A stretch of 64,000 nucleotides of DNA, from NCBI GenBank assembly GCA_039621445.1, contig CP154954.1, forward strand, positions 8,062,634-8,126,633, written 5' to 3'. The notes beneath the pieces are model-generated. The model did no database searches. It worked only from the letters and a program-made list of their open reading frames with translations, and was not told the DNA's origin. The DNA is from Euglena gracilis. Lineage: Eukaryota. Positions 11,836 to 56,882 of the stretch are shown here, piece after piece. Positions within the stretch are counted from its first letter, which is position 1. Every line of letters begins with the position of its first letter. The translations under genes were made by a program, and so were the position numbers.

Positions 11836-14800
11836 TCAGCGCTTCTTCCGCTTCTTCTTCTCCTTGGACTTCTTGGCCTTCTGCTCCTTGCGGCGCTTCT
11901 TCTTCGCCCGCCGCTTGCGGTCGCCACTGCTGGAGGAGCTGCTGGACTCGGTCCATTCGCCACTGCAGGGCACGCGCGTGCACACACACATACACACACG
12001 CGCGCGCGCGCACGCACGCACACACACGCACGCGCGCGCGCGCGCGCGCGCACACACACACCACACACACACCACACACACACACACACACACCCAACAC
12101 ACACACACACACAGGTGCCTCGTTGCTGCTTTTCAGTTAGGGGGGGGGGGTGTCCGGGGTCCCCCAATTGGTGGGGGGGGGGGAGCACATTGGAAGTCAG
12201 GTTTTAATGAGTTTCTGAGAGGTTTATATATTATATATTTATTTTGTTTCAGAAAACCCAAAAAAGCCAAAAAAAACGAGCATTATTGGCAGGCTTTGCC
12301 CTACCCCTGCCCAAAGCACCCACCCCCGCAGGGGGTGTGAATTCCCTTAAAAGAAGCCGTTGAGGGTCCAAAAAAAACTTTCACCTAGTTCAGGTCAGCG
12401 GGAGAATTCTCCATGATAGCGATTATTGTCACACCCCCATTGTCTTCGACACCCAGAATTGTGCATCACCCATCCCAACCCCGACAAGCTCCCACAACAG
12501 TCGAACGTACCTTCCCCACCCGGCCTACCCATAACAACCGTGCGACCATCATTAAAAAAAAAAGCACCCACCTTCTGCTAGCTAGTGCTGCTCAGCAGAC
12601 CCCCCCTCCTGTGGGGGGGGGGGGGGCCACTGGATGCTCCACTGGCCATTGTTTGCACTAGCTGCAGTCAAGCCCCCCCCCCCCCCGGGAGGTTCAGCAA
12701 CCCTTATTGAGAAACCTGCCCACCATAGAGACCATATATAGAGTTTCCAGAAGTCGCATTCAACCCTGCGAGGGGGGGCCAACCGGGTGGGGCCAAGCTG
12801 CCTTCAACAGCCCAGGGGCCAACGGGGGGGGGAGGGTCAGCAGTGGCCTGCTTAGATGCAGAGCTGGAGCTGGAACCGGAGCTGCGGCGGCGCTTCTTGG
12901 CCTTGTCCGCCTTCTTGCGGCGCGCTGCGCCGCTGCTGGCAGGGCCGCCCGGGGGGGGGGGGGGGGGTGGCTGTGCGCCGAGTGCGTAGACCCCAGGTGG
13001 TCATCCTTGCATCGCCCAATTCCATGTAGGGAAGGCGTGGTGGGGGGGGGGGGCGAGGCTTCAAAGTTCCAACCATAAAGTTTCCGGGGCAAGGCATTGG
13101 TTTAGGACCCCCCCCCCCCCCTCCCCGGGGGGGAGGTAGGGGGTCTGGACCAATAACCACGTCACTCTGAAAAATCACTCACCCACCCTCCCCAGGGGGA
13201 TCGGCCAGTGACGAAGTGATTGTATGTTCTGGGATCGAGAACGCCTCTGCTAGCTCTCACTGCTCCCATCATCCGAGCTGCTGCTGCTGCTGCTCCGTCG
13301 TCAGCCTCAGAAGGGTGGGTTCTAGTGCGGCAAGACGAGGCTTCTCAGCTTTTTACAGGTGTACCGGTGGATCGACTTTTACCTATACTTTCTGGTTTTT
13401 TTGCAGATGGTGAAAAATTCCACCAAAATAAAAAAAATTATCTGATGTGTGGTACAAAATCTTGGTTCGATAATCTGGATTGATTCAATGTTTAAGATAC
13501 AAATGTGGGTGTGGGTGTGTGTGTGTGTGTGGGTGTGCATGTGTGCAGGCGCGCGTGCATGTGTGTGCGTGCGTGTGTGTGCGCGCGTGTATGTGCAAAT
13601 GTGTGTGTGTGTGCGCGCGCGCGCGTGTGTGTGCGTGCGTGCGCATGTGTGCAGTGTATACTCAAAGCCAGGCCTATTGCAGTTGACGTGGATACTCTTC
13701 TGCAAATTGTCACCAAAGGGTTGGGTACCACAGACCAAGATGACAAGTTCAGGGTCTGAGAAAAACAACCTCTCGTGTGACAGAAAATCTTCACCCCCTT
13801 GGCTGGATAATTTGACACCAAAAAAAATTCAAACCCACATTTTACGCAGTTGCCGTTTCTTTAGCCTTCAGTTCATACAAAAGTTGAATTTTATTGTAGT
13901 GTTTTTGTTAAAGAAAAAATGAACATTCCCATGAGAAATATCAAAATATAAGATATAATAACATAAAACACAAAACATCTATACTAAAACTAATAAAATA
14001 CTAAAATATCAAAAATATACAAGACATCTGCAACCCTCATGCTTGCCGCCTTCTTCCGCCCCCCCCGCTACCCTTTTTTAAATTCAATCCAGGCTTTTCC
14101 TCCCCCCCCCCTACTGCTTCAGAGGCACCCCCAAGGAGTTGGCCAAAAATACCGTCCCCCCCCCCAATTTTTGAATTATTTGGCTGCCGGAACCCAGGTT
14201 CTGGCTGAATTCAGGGACCGAAAGACAAGTGGAACCTCGGGGCCCAATGCGTCTGGGGCGTCTGAGGCAGCAGACCGGGCCCCGGTCCCCACCCCACCGC
14301 CCTGGCCGCTTCAGGGGCTCCGGGATGAACACCACCTCCGTGCCGTCCGCGTCGTCGGGGACCGCCGCCCGGGGCGGCGGAGCCGGGGGCGAGGGCGGGC
14401 GGCGGGGGCACGGCTGCATGTTGGCCAGGGGGGGGGGGGGCTGGTTCAAAAAAATATTCCGCCGCCTATCCTGGCCCTTGTACGAGAAGGCCCAGTGGGG
14501 TGGGGGTCGACCCCCACACCATAGATTCACTTACTGACCCGGGGGGGGGGGGGCGTTTTCCCGGGCCTTTGAGGGTTGGAGTCCCCCACCCCCAACGAGG
14601 CCTTCCCAAATTTCTGGGGGTGCCGACTGTTAGGTCAACGTTTTCCTTGTGTGGTGCTGTGCTGGGTGTGTGGCATAGATTCATAGAAAGATGGATGGAC
14701 AGGCTACCAAATGGGACTTTGCAAGGGGCGATTCCTTCGGCGCCACCGTAAAACTGGGAAGCAGTGGGTGACCCCCCCCAACCCCACCACCAGATGGGAC

Positions 14801-17800
14801 CCCCCTCCACCGCCACCCACCGGAAATCCAAACGTGCGATTCCGCCTCCTCCCTCCCGCTATGGGGGCGGGGAGGCCCCCGTCCTCCTCCTCCTCCTCGG
14901 CCTCTCTCTCCACACAGGCAGCCCTGGGCGGGGGGCGTAGTACTGCTCGTCACGCTGGAACTGGGCCCCCCCGCGGCCCCGGAGCCCGTCGAGGGTGGGC
15001 CCCTGCCAAGCCGGCGTTCCGCGGCGTTGGCCCACTGTTTCGTGGTGGAGGTTGACCCTCCGGGGCAGAGGGAAAACACACCCGGCAATGAGGGGGAGGA
15101 TGACGTTTGGACGGGGCTGGCGCGGCGCAGTAACCCGCAGCTGGTTTCTCAAAACTCTTGCAGCGGCTCCGCAGCACTCCAGCAGCTGTCCCTTGACAGC
15201 ATTGTTTCCATTAAAAGTGGTCCGCACCCACCCACCCACCCACCACCCCTGGGGGTACCCGGGGGAGGGCTTGGGGGGACCACTTTTGGGGGTCAAATTT
15301 GGGGTCAAAAAAAAAATTGCGCTTCGAAACCCCCCCCTCCAGCGGGCTACCACTCGGCCAGAACAGGGGAGAAACTGCACATGGGCCAGTCAAAAACTGC
15401 ACTGCAAAAACTGCAAAAAACTGCACTTCAACAAAAAAAATTGACAATAAAAAAGCTGAAATGGTGTGCATATGCAAAACAACGGAAAACTGCGACCACA
15501 TGAGCACGCCCCAATTCACCTAACTTTTTTGCACAGCTTTGGAGCTGATGAAGACAAAGGGGATGCCCACCCCGCAGTGCCGGCACTGCGTGGCACTGCG
15601 TGGCACTGCGTGCACTGCGTGGCACTGCGGGCCGTTAAACCCTTGTTTTTGCATCATTGGCATTTCTGGGCCATCAAGGGCAATTCTGGTTGTTTTGTGC
15701 AACTTTTTGCCTTTTTGGGCCAATTTGACTGCTTCTGGCTAGAAATGTCGAAAAATGACCAAAAAGATGCCTGAAAAGCGTTACATCATTGAAGGTTATT
15801 GTATGCGGGTTGAACGGCCCGCAGTGCCACGCAGTGCCACGCGGTGCCACGCAGTGCCACGCAGTGCGGGGTGGGCATCCCCAAAAAATGGAAGCAGTCC
15901 ATCAAGGTACACTGTACACGGTATTTCATACACTGAAATGCAAGTCATGTGTTTGGATGCCGGGTCACACCGACCATGCCCACAAGGATGCCAAATGGTT
16001 TCCTTTCTAAATATGGAAAAACTGCACATAAACCCATACGCAGAAATATTCGATGCTTTCAATTCTTGCAGGGGATGTTCAATTTGGAACTTTCGGTCCA
16101 TTGAGTGGTGTGACATGGGATGAGCATTGGAATGGCATGGCAATGCAAAGAAAACATCATCGCAACATGCTTTCGTTCGACCGGGTTGTTTTAATCAGAG
16201 GAGAGGTCAGATGATGAAGAGGAGGAGGAGGAGGAGGAGGGGGACGGGAAAGTGGAGGTTACTGTTGAACGAAATGTACTCGCAAGCAACCTTCATCTGG
16301 CACATCGACGTTGAGTCTGCCTTTTCCTTTAGACATACCCTTCGCACGTCGCTTTGTGCCTTTGTTGGCTCGCTTGAGCCTGAAGCATGCACGCCGAGCA
16401 CTGAACTGTTGTGCTGCTCAACAACGTCAGAACTCAAACGTAACCGACGATCTGCCAAAATCATCCTCAGCCGACTGAATGCAGACTCAACAACTGCATC
16501 AGACGGGGTCAGAGCAAGGCACATGCGCAAAAAAATACACATCAGGTATTGGGGTGGAACGAAGACGTCGGTTACCTGTTGTAATTTGCGCACTCCTTTG
16601 ACGACTGCCCTCACAACCTTCAACATTGTTCAAACCTCCCACAATGCAAAGGTTGGAGAGGGAGCAATTTTGGTTGGGGAGTAATTGTGGCCTTGTCGCC
16701 AAAACAGCAAGCACCAAAAAATAAACATGTTAGGTTTCCTCAAAACTGGATCAACAAAAAACTGCAAAACAACCTGCAAAAAACCCAAAACGTGAAAACT
16801 GCAAAAAAAACAAACTGCAAAAAAACTTCACGTTGCAGATTTTCCACCTCCCTGACTCCAACCCCCTGGTGGGGGGGGGGGGGGCGGACCCACCCACGCC
16901 CCCATCCCCCCCCCCTGCCTTGACGTCTCAATCGTGTCCATGTGCCGGCATAATCTGCGCACTGGTCTGCAAAGGAAACGAAGCAAAAGTTTTAAATAAA
17001 TTTACAAAATCGTTGCTGCTCGCGGTGCTGGCAGCCACCCAATCGGGACGGGGGTTGGCCTTCTCCTCAACATCACTATCAAGAACACAGGCCCCCCTCC
17101 AGCGACCATGTTGGAGGTAGGTAGTCAGGCCGACCCCCGCAGGCATTATGACCTTTTAAGCCACCTTAAAAAACCTTAAAATGCCCCAAAATGCCTTCAA
17201 ATACCTTAAAAAAAAATCGGACCAGCAGAATTTTCTCTGAAAGAGCAAAAAACAAACCCGGCAAAGTTCCAGCCAACAAAAAACAGCCCAACTCGGGGAA
17301 GAAAAATGATTTTCGGTATCAATAGAACATTATCTATCCAAACTGAACTCAAAATTCCCAGCCGTCCCAGCCGTCCAGGGGGCACCGACCTGTTAAAACC
17401 CTTCTGCGTCAGTGACACCGTGGGACCAGGGCGTTTTTTAAACGACCCCCCCCCCCCCTTAGTTGCACTAAGGCTTCTTGTCTGCCCGGGGTCAGCTCAG
17501 AGGCTGGAAATTTTGGGCTGGCTGGAAAAAGGCTGCTGGCTGACCCCCCCCCCCGGGCTGGAGCTGGACCCAACCTGGGGCCAAACTGGGTCCCAAAAGA
17601 TCGAGAGTGCAAAACCGTTCAAAAAAAACTGCCAAATATGCAAAAAAAACAACAAATGTTTCAACGTTTTTTTCAATTTTTTGACCCCAAATATTTCCTG
17701 GCCAGGCCAAATCTGACCCATTTTTGTCCATTTTCGCCCCATTTTTGGACCATTTTTTGAACCCCCAAAAGCGAAAAACCCGTTGCTGTCCAGCTGCCCA

Positions 17801-18878
17801 AAGGGTGGCTGGAAAGATAAATAAATCTCATTGGGGGGGGGGACCCGAGCTGGAAAAAGACTGCTATGACAGACCCCGCCCCGGGGGGTGGGGTCAAATT
17901 TTCTTAAGCTGCACCCGCCGTGGGACGTGCGGCCGAAAGGGGGGGCCTGGGCCGCGTCGGGGGCCTTCTCCTCCTCGCTCGAGACGCTGCTGGTGCTGCT
18001 GGGCATCTCCCACCGCTCCGGCATCGCCCTCCCTGACGACTCCGCCGCCCGGTCCGGCCCCGACGGCCGCATGTGGTTGGGGGGAGGCCGCCGCCGGGGA
18101 CCCCCCGGGCGGTACGGGAAGGCCGGGTGGGGGTGGGACGGTCGACCCCTCGATGGCGCCGGGCATGGAATACGCATTTGTGACCTAGAAACCCCGGGTC
18201 ACAGGAAGGGGTGGTGGGGGACTGGTCCTGCCCACCCATCCACCCACCCACCAGGATGGGGGGGGGGGTCGACCCACCCGCCACGCATTGGGTTTTCCCA
18301 GCAGGGACCCATAGCCCCAAAGTGGCGGCTGAAACGGACTGGGGTGGGAAGAAGTCACAGCGTCTTGCCTTCTCTGCGGGGCGAGGCGCCATGAAGAACT
18401 GAGCTTAAATAACCTGCAAGCATCACAGGTGGAGACCTGTGATTTCATAATTGTGCGTGAATGAGTATAAGTAACGTATGAAATCATTATGAATTTTTTT
18501 TAATTTATATTTTGAAAAAAAAAATGAAAATGATAAATTGAGTGAGTAATAATGAAATATGTAATAATAATATAATAGTAAAAACAATATATACAATAAT
18601 AATAACAAGAACAAGAACAACACCAACAATAATAGTTGCAATTGTAATTGTTATTGTAATTGAAATTGTGATCGTGATCGCGATCGCGATCGTGATCGTG
18701 ATCATGATCGTAATCATAATCATAATCATTATCATAATTGTAATCAGAATCAGAATCAGAATCAGAATCAGAATCAGAATCAGAATCAGAATCAGAATCA
18801 GAATCAGAATCAGAATCAGAATCAGAATCAGAATCAGAATCAGAATCAGAATCATAACAACAGCAACAACAACAACAA

Positions 18879-18909
<31 letters not shown>

Positions 18910-20885
18910 AAGAAGAAGAAGAAGAAGAAGAAGAAGAAGAAGAAGAAGAAGAAGAAGAAGAAGAAGAAGAAGAAGAAGAAGAAGAAGAAAAAGAAGAAAA
19001 AGAAGAAGTATAAACAGCTTGCAAACTTGCAGAGGAAGTGACTTTAGGGCTTGGAATGTTAATTGGAAATACAAAGCAAACACCAGCGGCCAGTCTATCC
19101 GGGCGCCGGCCTCACCGCGGCACTGGAACGTGAGGTGGCCTGTGGCGCCGCAGCGCTTGCACGTCCCCTTCGTAGCCGCCACCTGCCCCGCCCAGGGGTT
19201 TTCTTACGGACCTGGGGGGGGGGGGGTCCCATGGGCCAGCTGGAAGAAGGAGTTGGCTGGACCCCCCCTGGGGGTGGGGGTCCAGTGGGGGGGGTCCAGC
19301 CAGCTGGAAGCTGGACCCGGCAGGTATCCCAAAAAAAAAAGCCAAAAAAGCCGAAAGCCAGCTGGGTTTGAATTTTTCAGCCAAAATTTGGAGGAAAAAC
19401 CCCAAACCCACCCAAAAACGCCATTTCCCACCATTTATCATTTTTCAAGCATTTTTCTGGCTTCTTCGCCGGCTGGCCTGAACTTTCTGTCAGCGGACCC
19501 CCGGGGGGGGGGGGGACCGCAGCCCAGCTGGGAGGTGCTGGTTGGAAAAAAGGTGCTGGCTCCCGGGGGGGTAGGGTCCCCTCCAGCTTTAGAAAACCCC
19601 TGGCCCCGCCGCCGCGGCGTGTGTCTTCGCCAGGCTGAGCAGCCCCTTGTGGTGCCAGGGCGGAGGGGCCCCAGGCTGGGGAGGGGGGACAACAATGACA
19701 GGAAAAAATGACGGGGAAAATGACGGGAAAAATTGACAGAAAAAAAGGACTGGAAAAAACCATATGAAAAAAAAAATGGCAAGAAAAAAGACGGGAGAAA
19801 CTGATGGAAAAAAACTGACGGAAAAAAACTGATGGGAAAAAATGACAGGAAGAAAAGATGCGAAGAAATGACGAGAAATACTGGATGGATCTTTGTTTCC
19901 CGTCATCTTTGTTTCCCGTCATCTTTGCCCAGACACACTTCAAAAACGTTTCCACACACAACGTCACCCACCAACGAGTCATCCAATGAATCATCTAGTG
20001 GATCAGTGGCACAAAGCAAATGATGTTAAATTGGCAGTAATCAAACATAAATCATCAGGTTGGTTCAGGTTTGATAAAAGGGCAGGTGGGGGACACCCCC
20101 CCCCCACCTAAACAGTGGCACGGTCTGGGAGTCGCTGATTTTGGCCCAGCACCAAGCGCCAGACCGAAAATTTTTGCCCACCAAAAACGGCCATTTTGGG
20201 CAATTTTTGGGCAAAAATTTGTCAAAAAATGCAAAAAAAAAAAGGCGCAAAGCGCCAGAAGGAAAAGTTGACCTTTGGGGGGGGGTCCCGGTTACCCCCC
20301 CCCCCCGGTCGGTCCAGACCCCTCTTGGCAGGTGGGCCCCTCCGGTCCAGGAGGGCCCGTGTAAACCCCGAACACCCTCCTTATATCAAACCCTGGTCGG
20401 GTTGCAGGTTGTTTAAAAATCGGACTTCAAAATGCGTTGCACCGTCCCCTTTTTCTGAACATCCATCCCCAACTGTCCTCAAATTCTATGACAACCCATT
20501 TCAATTATCCTCCCCCCACCTCCCCACCTGGGGTAACTGTCCTCAATGAGAGACTGCCCTGGAACAATTGTACTTAACAACATGACCTGCGTGTCCCTTC
20601 CGAAGGGTGGTTAAAAGGGTGACAAAAATTTAGGTTTATGCGGGATTCCATCCTGTCGAAATGAAAGTGGGAAAGGTAGGCTGGGTTGCGTGCCAAAAAA
20701 GGGACACTCGCACATTCCGACCGGCCCCGCCCTGCGCACGTGTCGTAGGCACTGCTGCCCGCGGCCTGGCCCTCCGCGGCGGGCTTCGCGGTGGCGCCCA
20801 TCGTCTGCCACACCGCGTCGCCCCCGCTGGCGGAGGACATGTCGAGGTAGTTGTTGCGCCAGAAGTCCGGGGCGTACTTCGGCAT
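11836..20885 (-). CDS. CXIP4: CAX-interacting protein 4 / SREK1IP1-like CCHC zinc-knuckle protein with Ser/Lys/Arg-rich tail, multi-exon
   Basis: Exons 20738-20885, 19606-19650 and 19116-19187 splice to ...AYDTYKGLLSLAKTHAAAAGQVAATKGTCKRCGATGHLTFQCRG, matching the CXIP4 motif (FQGLLALAR...RGxCKKCGxxGHLTFQCR). Further exons lie near 18370-18413, 17920-18150, 14860-15030, 14308-14420, 13254-13302 and 12855-12935. The last exon encodes ESSSSSSSGDRKRRAKKKRRKEQKAKKSKEKKKRKKR with TGA at 11836. Confidence 0.8.
15559..15882. mobile_element. MITE with ~75-bp TIRs (GGGGATGCCCACCCCGCA + GGCACTGCGT repeats), nested in the hAT relic
   Basis: 15559-15641 is the near reverse complement of 15809-15882; AAA lies on both flanks. 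Confidence 0.75.
16410..16626 (-). pseudogene. hAT transposase C-terminal dimerisation-domain remnant
   Basis: Translation ..IFLRMCLALTPSDAVVESAFSRLRMILADRRLRLSSDVVEQ matches the hAT dimerisation consensus (L..P.s.a..Er.FS....i....R.rL). The catalytic N-terminal part is absent. Confidence 0.8.
18545..19008. repeat. Compound microsatellite: (ATCGTG/ATCATA)n, (ATCAGA)n, (AAC)n, (AGA)n
   Basis: Direct inspection; lies within a CXIP4 intron. Confidence 0.95.
19193..19602. mobile_element. hAT-type MITE forming CXIP4 intron 2
   Basis: Perfect 12-bp TIR CAGGGGTTTTCT...AGAAAACCCCTG with perfect 8-bp TSD GCCCCGCC at 19185-19192 and 19603-19610. Confidence 0.9.
20066..20395. mobile_element. Older copy of the 24039-24508 MITE family
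   Basis: Ends CAGGTTTGATAAAAGG / CCTTATATCAAACCCTG and a shared internal GGACACCCCCCCCACCTAAACAGTGGC; TSD degenerate. Confidence 0.7.
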
Positions 20886-20911
20886 GGCGCCCGGGGGAGG
20901 GGGAGGGGTGC

Positions 20912-20975
20912 CTGCGTGTGTGTGTGTGTGGAGGGGTGGGCGGGTGGCAGGCGGGGGTGGGGGGAGTGAGTACTG
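20912..20975 (-). promoter_or_regulatory. Putative spliced-leader trans-splice acceptor of the CXIP4-like gene
   Basis: C-rich tract ending CGCAG 26 nt upstream of the ATG. Similar sites lie at 9771 (GCN1-like) and 59690 (YR gene). Confidence 0.5.
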
Positions 20976-22970
20976 CGCCTGTTGGGACTGGAGGACACTT
21001 TTCAACTCTTTTTTTTTTCAGGAACAAAATCTTGAATTGCCGTGTTTTTTAAATTAGAATAGGGAACAGGACAGAGTCAGAGGTAATACAACGGTTTTTC
21101 ACAGACTCAATTGCCGCAGCCCATATGGGGCCCAGGAAATGGGTCTTTTGTCACATTTAACTTTTAATGATTCATCGTGTGCAAGTATTCACATAATTGC
21201 AGCAAATCCATCAGCTGAATGCGCAAAGGAATCACTGGCGCAATCGTGGAAAACCTCCACTTTGTTCCCGCTGTTGTGCAAGTAGTCCTGTGCCAGGCTC
21301 CTTTTAAAGGAAGTTCACCCCCGGGGGGTGGATGCTGTGGGCAGGTAGGGGGGGCAGGACACTTTCGACCCCCCGGAGGGGTCAGGTTTTTGGGGTGTTT
21401 CTGTTATTGACCCCCCGGCGCGGGGGCCTGAAAATGGTCATTTTCAAGGGAAAATTGGAAAGTTGGTAAGCACCGGGACCCAAAGCCGATCTCCTGGGGT
21501 GGGGGGTTCCTGCTGTGGGCAGGCACCCCATGGCACAAGGCGTCCCCCCCTCTCCCCCAGGTTGGAAAAAAGAAGCCTGCCGTATGCGCATTTGAGCGAA
21601 TAGTCCCTTTGCGCGATTGTGCAACCAACATTTTAAGTCGAAGTCAATGGTATCGTCCAGCGCTCGGTCTCACCTGCCCCAAATCGCTCCGGCAACTCTC
21701 CCGAAACTAGGTTGCTCGTTATGGATTTGCGTCTTGTAAACCCCGCAGGTGCATATGCAAGTGTCTTGTCCATTGCCTCGGGTATCTGGTGCAACAACTG
21801 AGACACTTTTTTGACCAACTCAGATGTACTGTACAAACACTTCCACTTATGAACGCCACTCACAGAACGCCGCTCCCCACTAGGGTGTTTTTTATCGACC
21901 CCCCCCTTCCAGGGGGTCCAGCTCAGAGGCTGGAAAATTTGGGCTGGCTGGAAACAGGTTGCTGGCTGACCCCCCTCCACCCCCCCCCAGGGGTCCGGGG
22001 TCCGGGGTCGAACCAGGTACCAAAAAGAATCGAAACTGCAAAAATGTCCAAAAAAACTGACAATTACTTCTCAGCCCTTTTCCAACCCATTTTCGCCCAT
22101 TTTTGACCAATTTTGGTCAAAAATGTCGAAATTCCAGAGGAACATTGAATCTTCTCGATAAAACCCCATCAGGGTCGAACACCAAGCCGCACTCTGTAAC
22201 AATGAGGGAGTTGTGAGTGGGGCAGGATTTGACACACTGAAATCCAGACTTTCCTGGATTCTGTAGTCTTCCTTATTCTGCAGTTAGCTGTGCAGATTAT
22301 TCAAAGGCCATTGTTTTCTTTCTTTCACGGTTTGGGAGACACAGTGGAGTGCAACTGAGGACATTTCATCCGTCGGGGGAATTTTTTCCACGCAAAACAT
22401 ATTACTGGCAATGCAGACTCCCCAGCAACGGTTGAAGGATATGACACCCATGTTCAACTCCGCACTTCAGGCAGCAATGAATTATGAGAGCCCTAAATTC
22501 CCGCAAACCAAGAACACAATTGAGCACGTGAACCCTTGCTGGTGCCCACTGGAGCCAGTGTGATTGGGTCGCAGAGGATTTGTGCCAACGGCGCACCCGT
22601 CGCAGGGCAGGAGGCTGTGTTGGCCGGAACACAGGATTGGCAAACAGGAGGCAATTACTGCCATTCGCCCCCCCCCCCCCGACACCATGGACATGGTAGA
22701 GATATCTAGATAGACAGAGCATGGACATGGCCATGCTCAGGCCGTGGCTTGGCGTGTACCGGCCCAAATGCCTGCCCAACACCCTCCCCGTGTCTCGCCA
22801 CGGCTACACTGTACACCGCACTGATGCTCGCGCAGTCCCCTGCCCTGCCACGCTCCATCCGCCAATGGACTGTGGGGGGAGGGCAGCCCACAGCTCTTGG
22901 ATGGCACGCGGAGCTGCAGTGGCAAGCGGAAGCCGGCGGACCGCACTGGTCAGTGAGAGGGCAGGGGAGG

Positions 22971-48464
<25,494 letters not shown>

Positions 48465-49395: not shown

Positions 49396-52135
49396 CTACT
49401 GCAACCCTCCTCCCGCTTCAACCTCCAAGGGATCAAACTCTCTGGCACGCCGTTCTTGAAGCTCCTCAGCAACATGTGCGTTGATTCCACCCTGTAGACG
49501 ACTCAGCAGATAACCCTTTACGGACATTTTGCAGAGCCTGAAACAAGCCAAATTTCACCTGGACTGTGCAGCGCTGTCTGGGGAACACAGTCGGGGCTTC
49601 GAAAGCGAGGGACTGGCAACGGGGGGGGGGGGGGGGTGGGGCTTTTTCGGGGGGGGGGGGAATTCACATCTCCCAGAGTCGAAACCCGGGGGTTTGAACT
49701 TTTCTTTAACGAAAACTGCGATTTCCCCAATTCTCCCGCAATTTTTCCGCAATTTTCCCGCAATTTTTCTGACATTGATTTTCCCCCTGGGGACAGTCCA
49801 GGGCCATGGAGTTGGGCCAGTGACCAGACAACAGACAGTTGTTCTGGATGAGACCCCCGAACAGAATTTGTTGACACCAGAAACGACTGGTCGTGAACAG
49901 TTTTTGCCATCCCGGGAAAAAAAGAGCAATCAACGTTTTTTAGGGGGTGTCTAATGATTTGGAAAGCCATCCACTTCGAAAATGCTTTCCTGAAGTCGAG
50001 GTTCCAGGGGCCAGCAACATCTTCAGAGCAGCGCGCGACTTGAATTCAGATTCAGATCGAACGAACAATCGACTAATTGACTGGTCGTACCGACCTCATC
50101 CAGGGAACCACTTTTGGAGGTGAACTTTGGGTTCAAAAAGATTTTCTTCGCTTTGTGTCAAAAAAAAGGCCTAAATGACCAAAAGGCTGCCTCCGGCGGG
50201 GAACCCAAAAATCCCTTTGGGGTAAAACCCTCCCCCCAAATAATACCCCCCAAATAATACCCCCCTTGGGGTCCGACTTCAGCGACCGGGTTAATCCCCC
50301 CCCCCCCCGGTTTCGGCCGAAGGCCCAGATTTTGATCTGAAAATACAGGTAAAAATCACAATCTCTGACAAAAAAAAATCGATTTTTCTGGATCATCTGA
50401 CCTCCAAAAAAAAAATGGTAAATTTCATAAGAAAGTGCAAAAAATGACCCCAAAGGGTTTTTTGGCTCCTTCGGTACTTCGAAAAATTTCGAAAAATTTT
50501 GGGTGCTATTACCCCTCTCCAAATAATACCCCCCCCCCTCAGGCCGGGACTTCGGGCGAAAAAATAATACCCGGGGGGTATTATTTGGGGGGTTTACCCC
50601 CCCCCCTTTATTTGACCCCCCCTTAATTGAGCATTTGGGTCCGGGGGAAAAAAATTTTTCATGCAAGGAATTTCATTGGCCGAGCCAAAAAAACCCCTCG
50701 TCGGCCGGGGCCGAGGGACAATATGGGGGGGGGGGGTGGTATTCCTAATTTTTGGTGCCAAACCCCTATTTTCATGTGCCCCCCCCCCGGGGTACCACCC
50801 CCTCCCTTATATTTGAGCACACCCACGGGCCAAAGGACCCCCAAATGCTCAAATAAGGGGGGGTCAAATACCCCCCCCCCTCATTGTCCCACCGACCTCC
50901 CCCCGGGAGGCCCGACCGGACAATATGGGGGGGGGGGACAATATGGGGGTACCAAAGGAATTTCATTGGCCGAGCCAAAAAAACCTCCCGTCGGCCGGGG
51001 CCGAGGGACAATATGGGGGGGGACAATAGGGGGGGGGGGGGGAAAGGGGGGTCAAAAATTCCGGGGGGAGGTCGGTGGGAAAATAAGGGGGGGGGGGGTA
51101 TTTGACCCCCCCCTTATTTGAGCATTTGGGGGTCCTTTGGCCCGTGGGTGTGCTCAAATATAAGGGAGGGGGTGGTACCCCGGGGGGGGGGGCACATGAA
51201 AATAGGGGTTTGGCACCAAAAATTAGGAATACCACCCCCCCCCCATCTTTTCCCCCCCCCAAATTGTCCCTTGGCCCGGCCGACGAGGTGTTTTTTTGGC
51301 TCTGTCAATGAAATTTCCTTTGGTACCCCCATATTGCCCCCCCCCATATTGTCCCGGGGGGCCTCCTGGGGAGAGGTCGGTGGGACAATATGGGGGGGGG
51401 GGTATCGAGCATTTCTGTCAAAAAAGTCCTTTCAAACAAATTACCTGCAATTTCAATGATATTTTCTTTAAAAAAAAGAACAGATGTTTTTTTTTAAAAA
51501 AAAATCAACAAGTTTTTGTTAGGAAAAAAAACTGGTCCAAACTCAAAATAACCTGGTCCTCACCCTCGCTTGTAGGGACACCTTACGCAAAACGCAGAGC
51601 CTCTTCCTCCAGACGAAAAACTCAGCGAACATTCTTCGGTTTTCCGTGTTTGAGTGCTGCGGTTTCCAAAATGTGTTGGCAATTGCACCACTGTCCAACA
51701 GAAAATCATACAGACAAAACAATGGTTTTGATGGTGCCCTCCTTTTTCACAAATGCAAATTGAGGGGCGAAATTCAAATTTATCTGGTGATAAGGTGTCC
51801 TGGGCATGTGGATACTTTGCACATTTCGCAAATTTTGCGCATTTTGCATCTGCGTTTCCAAGGAATGCATGCAAACAGTTTGAAATTAGGTCAAAAATGC
51901 CCTGGTTGAGTGATAAAAATATTTGGTACCCAGGGGTCTTCAAAAAAAAACATTGAACCGGGGGATCAAAACAATTCAAGATGGAATTGGGGGATGGTCA
52001 TGTTTTTGGTTGCGAGGAGAGAACAGGTGTGCTCACAAGGTCTGTTCATCTTCAACATCTCCCTCCTCATTCTCCTTCACCTCTCCATCGACAGTTGGCT
52101 CGCTGGGGCAAGAGACCCCCGCTGCCATCTACATT
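49396..52135 (-). other. Scattered coding-like fragments of an unidentified gene or transposon relic
   Basis: Open, protein-like stretches at ~49396-49536 (..GYLLSRLQGGINAHVAEELQERRAREFDPLEVEAGGGLQ*), ~49960-50045, ~51553-51692 (..ENRRMFAEFFVWRKRLCVLRKV..) and ~52035-52130 (acidic). No consistent splice path was established. Confidence 0.3.
50665..51404. mobile_element. Foldback cluster of TA-flanked (Tc1/mariner-type) MITEs
   Basis: 50665-50880 and 51090-51320 are inverted copies; the same MITE unit occurs at 50869-51040, 51230-51404 (reverse) and 61200-61381. Confidence 0.75.
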
Positions 52136-56203: not shown

Positions 56204-56882
56204 TAGCATTGGGTATCTTTCGAAAGATTGGGAAAATATATTTCATTTCAGAAATATTTCAACAACATTTCAGAAATATTTCGAAAGATGAAAAATATTT
56301 CCCCCATTTTTGCAAGCATGGAGGATCCTCATACCATATCTTTCCCGCCATTATTTTTCCACCATTCCTTATCCTCCCCTCGCCATCCGCGCCTCGGGTA
56401 CCCCCCCCCCCTCCCTAGTTAGTCACCCCCCCCCAGTTAGTCACCCCCCCCTTTTTGTTACCCTTTGGCCACATACGAATTTTTTTTCGAAGGGAAATAT
56501 TATTCTTTTAAAAAAAACACCGAATTTGGCCATCGGAATTTTTTTTATGGTTACCATCCATGAAAAGTGCCCTGGAATGCCCAAAAACAACCTTGAAACC
56601 CCCAAGAATTGGGCAGGGGGCAAAATTTGGGCATAAATTGACCCCCCCCCCCCCGAGTTAGTCACCCCCCCCCTGTTAGTCACCCTTGGCCAAATTCCCC
56701 TCCCAAGGGGGTGACTAACTGGGGGGGGGGGGGGCACGGTAACCTCGCCATGCTTTCCCATTCAAGTGGATTGTCAGGAAGGGTCCATATTTCAAATCTT
56801 TCACCAAGGGTAAAATGTATTTCTGAAATTTCATGAAATATTTCAAGTGAAATATTTCAATATTTCTTTCGCCGCAATGCTA
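56204..56882. mobile_element. hAT-type MITE (TAG-initiated TIR) with a nested TA-flanked MITE at ~56399-56740
   Basis: TIR TAGCATTG...CAATGCTA; TSD GTACCATG at 56196-56203 and 56883-56890. Confidence 0.85.

Follow-up and report, generated by a model that had tools for sequence, protein, structure and literature searches.

The 64,000-nt stretch of the Euglena gracilis genome analysed here (contig CP154954.1, positions 8,062,634 to 8,126,633; hereafter the window, with positions counted from its first letter) contains a zinc-knuckle gene that is interrupted by a 418-nt nonconventional intron. The intron consists of a 410-bp element with terminal inverted repeats (TIRs) and one copy of the 8-bp direct repeat that flanks this element. 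It is removed exactly from RNA, its ends fit the code published for euglenid nonconventional introns, and similar elements occur in the nearby non-coding DNA. We consider it likely that a non-autonomous TIR transposon inserted into a coding exon and is excised as a nonconventional intron, taking one copy of its target-site duplication with it.

The removal of the intron was examined by comparing region 19010-21100 with four sequencing runs. X21 consists of raw RNA-seq reads under the same species label, X16 is probably a transcriptome assembly, and X1 and X9 are DNA assemblies. RNA joints were listed at a threshold of 3%, which left 34 less-supported joints out of the listing. One joint, 19184->19603, leaves out 418 nt and has eight letters that fit either side; it occurs in 16 X21 reads with 16 start points (51 X21 reads aligned in all) and in one X16 contig with a depth of 144.5. 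X21 read depth falls from about 10-12 in exon bins to 0-1.3 within the intron. The 418-nt joint is absent from both DNA runs (0/2) and thus reflects an RNA event. Among the joints listed, no other RNA-supported joint crosses the 418-nt interval, no back-joint of the intron occurs, and the mature-RNA junction is noncanonical (not GT/GC-AG). Independent support for the junction comes from the transcript protein P0004 (eukprot EG_transcript_22677), which reads THAAAAGQVAATKGT, ...AAAAGQVAAT..., and which at the site of the 418-nt removal has ...SLAKTHAAAAGQVAATKGTCKRC..., identical to the junction in the RNA reads.

The element itself (19193-19602; GC 0.59) is non-coding and resembles a MITE (miniature transposable element with inverted repeats). 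An inverted-repeat scan identified the perfect 12-bp TIR CAGGGGTTTTCT, for which an exact search returns two matches on opposite strands; the perfect inverted repeat at the element ends is counted as 12 (13) bp, and the TIRs begin with CAGGG. In the sense of the transcript, which runs along the minus strand, the 5' TIR (19591-19602) reads CAGGGGTTTTCT and the 3' TIR (19193-19204) reads AGAAAACCCCTG. The direct repeat GCCCCGCC, an 8/8 match found by repeat search, abuts both element ends (19185-19192, the downstream copy in transcript sense, and 19603-19610, the upstream copy). It is exactly 8 nt long, as the bases further outward and inward differ, and matches the eight-letter ambiguity of the RNA joint. 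The minus-strand order is ...GCGGC GGCGGGGC / CAGGGGTTTTCT ... AGAAAACCCCTG / GGCGGGGC AGGTGGCGGC..., and removal of the 418 nt in silico gives ...KTHAAAAGQVAATKGTCKRC.... Scans of 17500-21500 revealed no Rfam family or tRNA in the element; their three sub-threshold matches are in microsatellite. A BLAST self-search found one copy of the element within the window. The BLAST self-matches of the element are dominated by homopolymer runs (G or C, 12-16 nt), of which the window contains dozens at scattered positions.

An earlier note on this DNA had described a 410-bp element with perfect 12-bp TIRs and a perfect 8-bp flanking repeat, and the scans confirm that description. It had also proposed that removing the element together with one repeat (418 nt) restores the reading frame and that the intron is exactly the TIR element plus one duplication. 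Both the sequence and the RNA bear out the restored frame, and the junction is clean in the 16 X21 reads and the X16 contig, with the element and 8 nt removed exactly. Its warning that the cut register is unresolvable from messenger RNA (mRNA) holds too: the 8-nt ambiguity allows nine registers that all yield the same mRNA.

The published code of euglenid nonconventional introns distinguishes among these registers. As described in passages of PMC12501133 (PNAS 2025), the code consists of a 3-nt spacer followed by CAG (+4..+6) and of CTG (-8..-6) followed by a 5(-6)-nt spacer; in addition, a purine opens the next exon, and a stem inside CAG/CTG is required. Other passages behind this five-feature definition are in PMC11170887 and PMC3935182. 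According to PMC12501133, the code matches 61.2% of E. agilis nonconventional introns, and junction repeats are frequent in such introns, making them ‘slidable’. Only one of the nine possible registers at our locus satisfies the whole code. In this register the intron runs from 19605 to 19188 on the minus strand, as GGC-CAG...CTG-GGCGG, with spacers of 3 and 5 nt, CAG at +4..+6 and CTG at -8..-6, as the earlier note had expected, and the next, purine-initial exon opens with G at 19187. We infer the cut positions from the published code. The terminal stem of the 418-nt intron is present in both the minimum free energy and the centroid folds.

The events behind this arrangement may be reconstructed as follows. 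A short non-autonomous cut-and-paste DNA transposon would have inserted into a coding exon of the E. gracilis zf-CCHC_3 (CXIP4/SREK1IP1-like) gene, and this element with hAT-like CAGGG termini would have duplicated 8 bp of the exon. Before insertion, the exon (the empty site) would have read ...GCGGCGGCGGGGCAGGTGG.... In the pre-mRNA, both 12-nt terminal repeats would pair to form a stem closed by CAG:CTG; the nonconventional-intron machinery would recognise this stem, cut at a distance of 3 nt on its upstream and 5 nt on its downstream side, and join the exons. By analogy with published nonconventional introns, the intron would presumably be released as a circle. Since 3 + 5 equals the 8-nt duplication, one copy would leave with the element, and the mRNA would return to its pre-insertion sequence with no scar. 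As the TIRs are symmetrical, the orientation of the element should not matter.

Comparable elements are present elsewhere in the window, which was scanned for perfect TIRs with 8-bp flanking repeats, using windows simulated with a first-order Markov model (n=100) as a control. A perfect TIR of at least 10 bp with 8/8 flanks occurred in 0/100 simulated windows. The strict scan of the real window returned 35 raw rows, of which 30 were microsatellite artefacts and one was a long hairpin; five elements remain, including one from the relaxed scan only. Among YAR-start TIR pairs of at least 8 bp in the window (n=291), the flanks matched at 0 positions in 33 cases, at 1 in 76, at 2 in 79, at 3 in 61, at 4 in 24, at 5 in 12, at 6 in 1, at 7 in none and at 8 in 5. 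The background curve therefore ends at 6/8, with five outliers at 8/8, none of them of low complexity. The hairpin at 50793-51177, a palindromic unit of 385 bp whose perfect arms measure 71 nt, was rejected as an element with a duplication because its flanks merely extend the inverted repeat.

All four siblings of the 410-bp element lie in non-coding DNA and carry perfect 8-bp duplications. Three were identified by the TIR and flank scan: a 470-bp element (24039-24508) with a perfect 18-bp TIR CAGGGTTCGATATAAGGA and the duplication GATTAAAG; a 2282-bp element (23838-26119), inside which the former is nested, with a 10-bp TIR CAAGCACCTA and the duplication GGCAGGGG; and a 2344-bp element (29307-31650) with a 19-bp TIR CAGGGATGGATGGGAAGCC, the duplication GTACACCC and an internal tandem array of a 161-bp unit. 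The relaxed scan added a weaker sibling of 679 bp (56204-56882) with an 8-bp TIR TAGCATTG and the duplication GTACCATG. The termini of the five elements are all YAR: three are CAGGG, one is CAAGC and one is TAGCA. The five duplications (GCCCCGCC, GGCAGGGG, GATTAAAG, GTACACCC and GTACCATG) all begin with G on the plus strand; in this small sample, the shared G may reflect a target preference or an extra base of the element end. Long simple repeats are found in introns as well as in elements, at 18668-19008 (in intron 3 of the host gene, with (AAG)43 and hexamer arrays) and at 29910-30842 (5.8 repeats of the 161-bp unit within the 2.3-kb element).

The nested 470-bp element belongs to a second MITE family, CAGGGTT(C/T)GATATAAGG, with three copies in the window. 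Besides the intact copy (24039-24508), there is a partial copy at 45424 and a decayed copy (20066-20395; TIR about CAGGGTTTGATATAAGG, flanks 5/8) inside intron 1 of the host gene. DNA word depth over 20060-20400 reaches up to ~2x10^5 versus ~85 in the flanking single-copy DNA.

Word depth is also raised for the 410-bp family, to between 11x and ~1500x that of the flanks over parts of the element. At 19201-19207, in or beside the TIR, it is ~18-21 times as high as in the locus contig, and the spot is covered by 18 distinct X1 contigs. The raised depth suggests that the 410-bp element is a member of a multi-copy family, with the proviso that word depth is not copy number. Over the first 15 nt of the element, the X1 locus contig differs from the window by T>A at 19201 (in the TIR) and by C>A at 19207; since A at 19207 is found in 18 X1 contigs, it looks like the family consensus. 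Of two metagenome pattern scans with the element termini, the first gave 0 matches. The second gave one match, in bacterial sequence read as a C5 cytosine methyltransferase coding region; as BLAST detects no similarity between that sequence and the window, it was set aside as a chance match.

The host gene lies on the minus strand. Ten exons, spanning 20885 to 11839, correspond to P0004 (272 aa, with PF13917 precomputed). Exon 1 (20738-20900, with the ATG at 20885), delimited by RNA joints and an in-frame protein search, is 98% identical to P0004, which assigns the window to E. gracilis or a closely allied species. Exon 2 (19606-19650 in the code register; ..YKGLLSLAKTHAAAAG) was placed by RNA joints and P0004. 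Exon 3 (19117-19187; QVAATKGTCKRCGATGHLTFQCR), bounded by the RNA joint and a loose end of RNA reads at 19117, encodes the CCHC zinc knuckle and matches Pfam zf-CCHC_3 (PF13917) with 29 bits, against a gathering cut-off of 27. The gene is presumably CXIP4-like, after plant proteins with a similar knuckle and a Ser/Lys/Arg tail. Neighbours of the protein in the atlas are zf-CCHC_3 clusters (scores 0.85-0.88), which we treat as a lead only. An orthologue search with residues 1-130 of P0004 retrieved only P0004 itself.

Two further introns of this gene were verified with RNA. Intron 1 (19651-20737, 1087 nt) is nonconventional, with the form GCG-CAGGGCGG...CCGCCCTG-GCACC and A as the first base of the next exon; its joint is found in 18 of the X21 reads as well as in one X16 contig, and no ambiguity of register arises there (0 letters fit both sides). 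Intron 3 (18079-19116, 1038 nt), placed by loose ends of RNA reads, is a nonconventional GAG/CTC variant with spacers of 3 and 5 nt (GGT-GAGGCCG...CTC-CCCCC, next exon A), and it holds (AAG)43 and hexamer repeats. Introns 1 and 3 share the 3/5 spacing, and their duplication halves match at 1/8 and 3/8 positions, respectively, versus 8/8 at the 418-nt intron; the latter therefore looks like the youngest of the three. Introns 4-9 were placed from P0004 alone and are not nucleotide-exact; among them, intron 4 alone was sufficiently clear to be considered here.

Some other features of the host gene were recorded. Intron 3 has two donors, with 19117 the end point of four X21 reads (and of the X16 contig) and 19101 that of three; both forms join the same exon-4 sequence, and the form that is 16 nt longer shifts the frame. 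Relative to EG_transcript_22677, the window gene has a 2-residue insertion in exon 7 (PPSPPAPPP vs PPSPPPP; 14306-14407) and a few substitutions (S20G at 20826-20828 and R105K at 18028-18030), differences that, as far as the sequences tell, suggest another strain or allele. The Logan protein P0003 (91 aa) is exon 1 read straight into intron 1; this is a gene call on unspliced DNA and no isoform.

Several observations weigh against the proposed origin of the 418-nt intron. Its whole-intron fold energy is only marginally better than that of shuffled sequences (z = -1.97; 6/100 shuffles as good). Intron 4, as placed by the protein, has a perfect 10-bp CAG/CTG stem with spacers that sum to 10, and the rule of ‘stem + 8’ is thus not universal. 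No empty-site allele was seen in DNA runs X1 and X9 (0/2), whose contigs cannot prove absence. The two ends of the 410-bp element differ greatly in word depth, and a second full-length copy of the family was not recovered from the window or the DNA runs. Finally, GCCCCGCC misfits the hAT target consensus nTnnnnAn, and 0/5 of the duplications have T at position 2 plus A at position 7; Pfam searches of 18 long ORFs (open reading frames) of the window, ten of which overlap or adjoin the two 2.3-kb elements, found no transposase domain. The earlier note's description of the intron as a young introner stands in part. The siblings back its origin by transposition, and both the TIR and the duplication are perfect; on the other side are the missing empty site and, for sister copies, raised word depth with no second full copy or intron found.

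The last two of these points concern the superfamily. Elements of the hAT superfamily are characterised by an 8-bp duplication and CAGGG-type termini with the motif YARNG, and their target consensus nTnnnnAn is weak even in accepted hAT families. The 410-bp element resembles hAT MITEs in its 8-bp duplication, its short CAGGG TIRs (a YARNG end) and its lack of coding capacity, and differs from them in its target sequence and in that the window showed neither an autonomous partner nor a hAT transposase. Calling it hAT-like is our best guess from the sequence, somewhat favoured over other assignments and short of demonstrated membership. Another superfamily with 8-bp duplications, Merlin or P, could have supplied the element by the same mechanism, which we consider unlikely: all five elements start with YAR and three of them with CAGGG, in keeping with the hAT motif and not with the Merlin terminal motif GG.... 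This alternative gains from the unmatched target consensus and from the lack of a hAT transposase in the 18 ORFs. It also gains from the draft genome of E. gracilis, for which a passage of PMC8101967 documents two families of Merlin elements whose TIRs are nearly perfect and whose duplications measure 8 bp, alike to our element in organism, duplication length and repeat quality. The ‘hAT-type’ label of the earlier note is thus plausible in view of the duplication and the CAGGG end, and weakened by the transposase result, the target consensus and the Merlin alternative.

Repair of a double-strand break with filler DNA, which would make the 8-nt repeat a footprint of that repair, has a proposed precedent in intron 4 of gapC from E. 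agilis ACOI 323. A passage of PMC4770533 (2016) describes this nonconventional intron as strain-specific and recently gained, and reads its eight-nucleotide junction repeats as footprints of break repair. Such a process leaves unexplained the perfect 12-bp TIR that abuts the repeat, the nesting and the multi-copy family members. It likewise does not account for the four further TIR elements with exact 8-bp repeats within 64 kb, where flank repeats otherwise stop at 6. These four elements back the transposition origin that the earlier note had put forward and therefore favour transposition over break repair, which we regard as improbable at this locus.

Still less probable is that the 418-nt intron is an old nonconventional intron with a stem lengthened by selection and a flanking repeat that arose by coincidence. 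Short junction repeats are indeed common, with 84.4% of E. agilis nonconventional introns being ‘slidable’ according to PMC12501133. However, the 8/8 match contrasts with the values at the two other verified introns of the gene, and the combination of TIR and 8/8 flanks did not arise in the simulated windows.

The earlier note had further stated that there is no in-frame GT-AG pair between the exons, which is incorrect. There are 19 in-frame, stop-free canonical pairs, three of them GT-AG (with the weak donor GTTTTC at 19597) and 16 GC-AG; for example, GT at 19597 with AG at 19183 would remove 415 nt and give AAAAGPGVAAT. Despite the existence of these pairs, an ordinary spliceosomal intron is hardly tenable, as the only listed joint across the interval skips 418 nt and has, in the code register, ends other than GT..AG, no listed joint uses any of the 19 pairs, and P0004 is without the extra residues that canonical pairs would add.

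A transposon that probably inserted into a coding exon and is excised at the RNA level bears on a long-standing proposal. The origin and the removal machinery of euglenid nonconventional introns are still described as unknown. A MITE origin was proposed in 2014 (PMC3935182) and was repeated, in the parts seen always as a suggestion, in PMC4770533, PMC11282704 and PMC12501133. The present locus provides a clean, RNA-verified intron in which both the TIR and the 8-bp duplication are still intact, with similar siblings in nearby non-coding DNA. The literature searched, whose supplements may hold such data, did not yield any statement equating the 3 + 5 spacers with duplication length, nor a superfamily assignment for the TIRs of nonconventional introns, nor a prior case of intact long TIRs together with sibling non-intronic elements.

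The transposon reading would give a reason for the peculiar 3 + 5 rule of the spacers, which is known from mutagenesis. Tentatively, and with more doubt than confidence, we propose that euglenid nonconventional splicing acts at the RNA level as a ‘precise excision’ device, which is calibrated to a single class of DNA transposons, with the 3 + 5 spacers equal to the 8-bp duplication. If so, any element of that class terminated by CAG...CTG would be erased scarlessly from a transcribed exon in either orientation. Most Euglena introns (about 72% in E. agilis, according to a passage of PMC12501133) would then be decayed insertions, and young introns could be told by their junction repeats, with lengths of up to, and never beyond, 8 nt. 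The hypothesis thereby becomes a genome-wide question of whether nonconventional introns coincide with TIR families that have 8-bp duplications, and whether the length of the junction repeats is capped at 8.

Three known systems invite comparison. DNA-transposon insertion also makes the intron in introners, which Huff et al. reportedly described in 2016 from Micromonas, Aureococcus and other algae, and there, too, the mRNA is restored through use of the target duplication. Introners differ in having spliceosomal GT-AG sites partly built from the duplication, in contrast to the noncanonical junction here, and in forming large, near-identical families; those of Micromonas, Aureococcus and other algae are reviewed in PMC11282704. 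Intron 4 of gapC in E. agilis (PMC4770533, in the passage cited above) is similarly nonconventional with eight-nucleotide direct junction repeats, and both it and the 418-nt intron show a maximum repeat of 8. Unlike our intron, for which no presence/absence polymorphism was found in two DNA runs, the gapC intron is absent from other strains. With published euglenid nonconventional introns in general (passages of PMC12501133, PMC11170887 and PMC3935182), the 418-nt intron shares the CAG/CTG positions, the 3/5-nt spacers, the purine, the stem and the slidable junction. It differs from them, as far as those passages describe them, in that its stem is a perfect 12-bp transposon-type TIR and in that its slide is a full 8 nt, matching an intact target duplication. 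The locus is thus a strong new example and not a new kind of intron, and it lends direct support to the existing hypothesis of a MITE origin.

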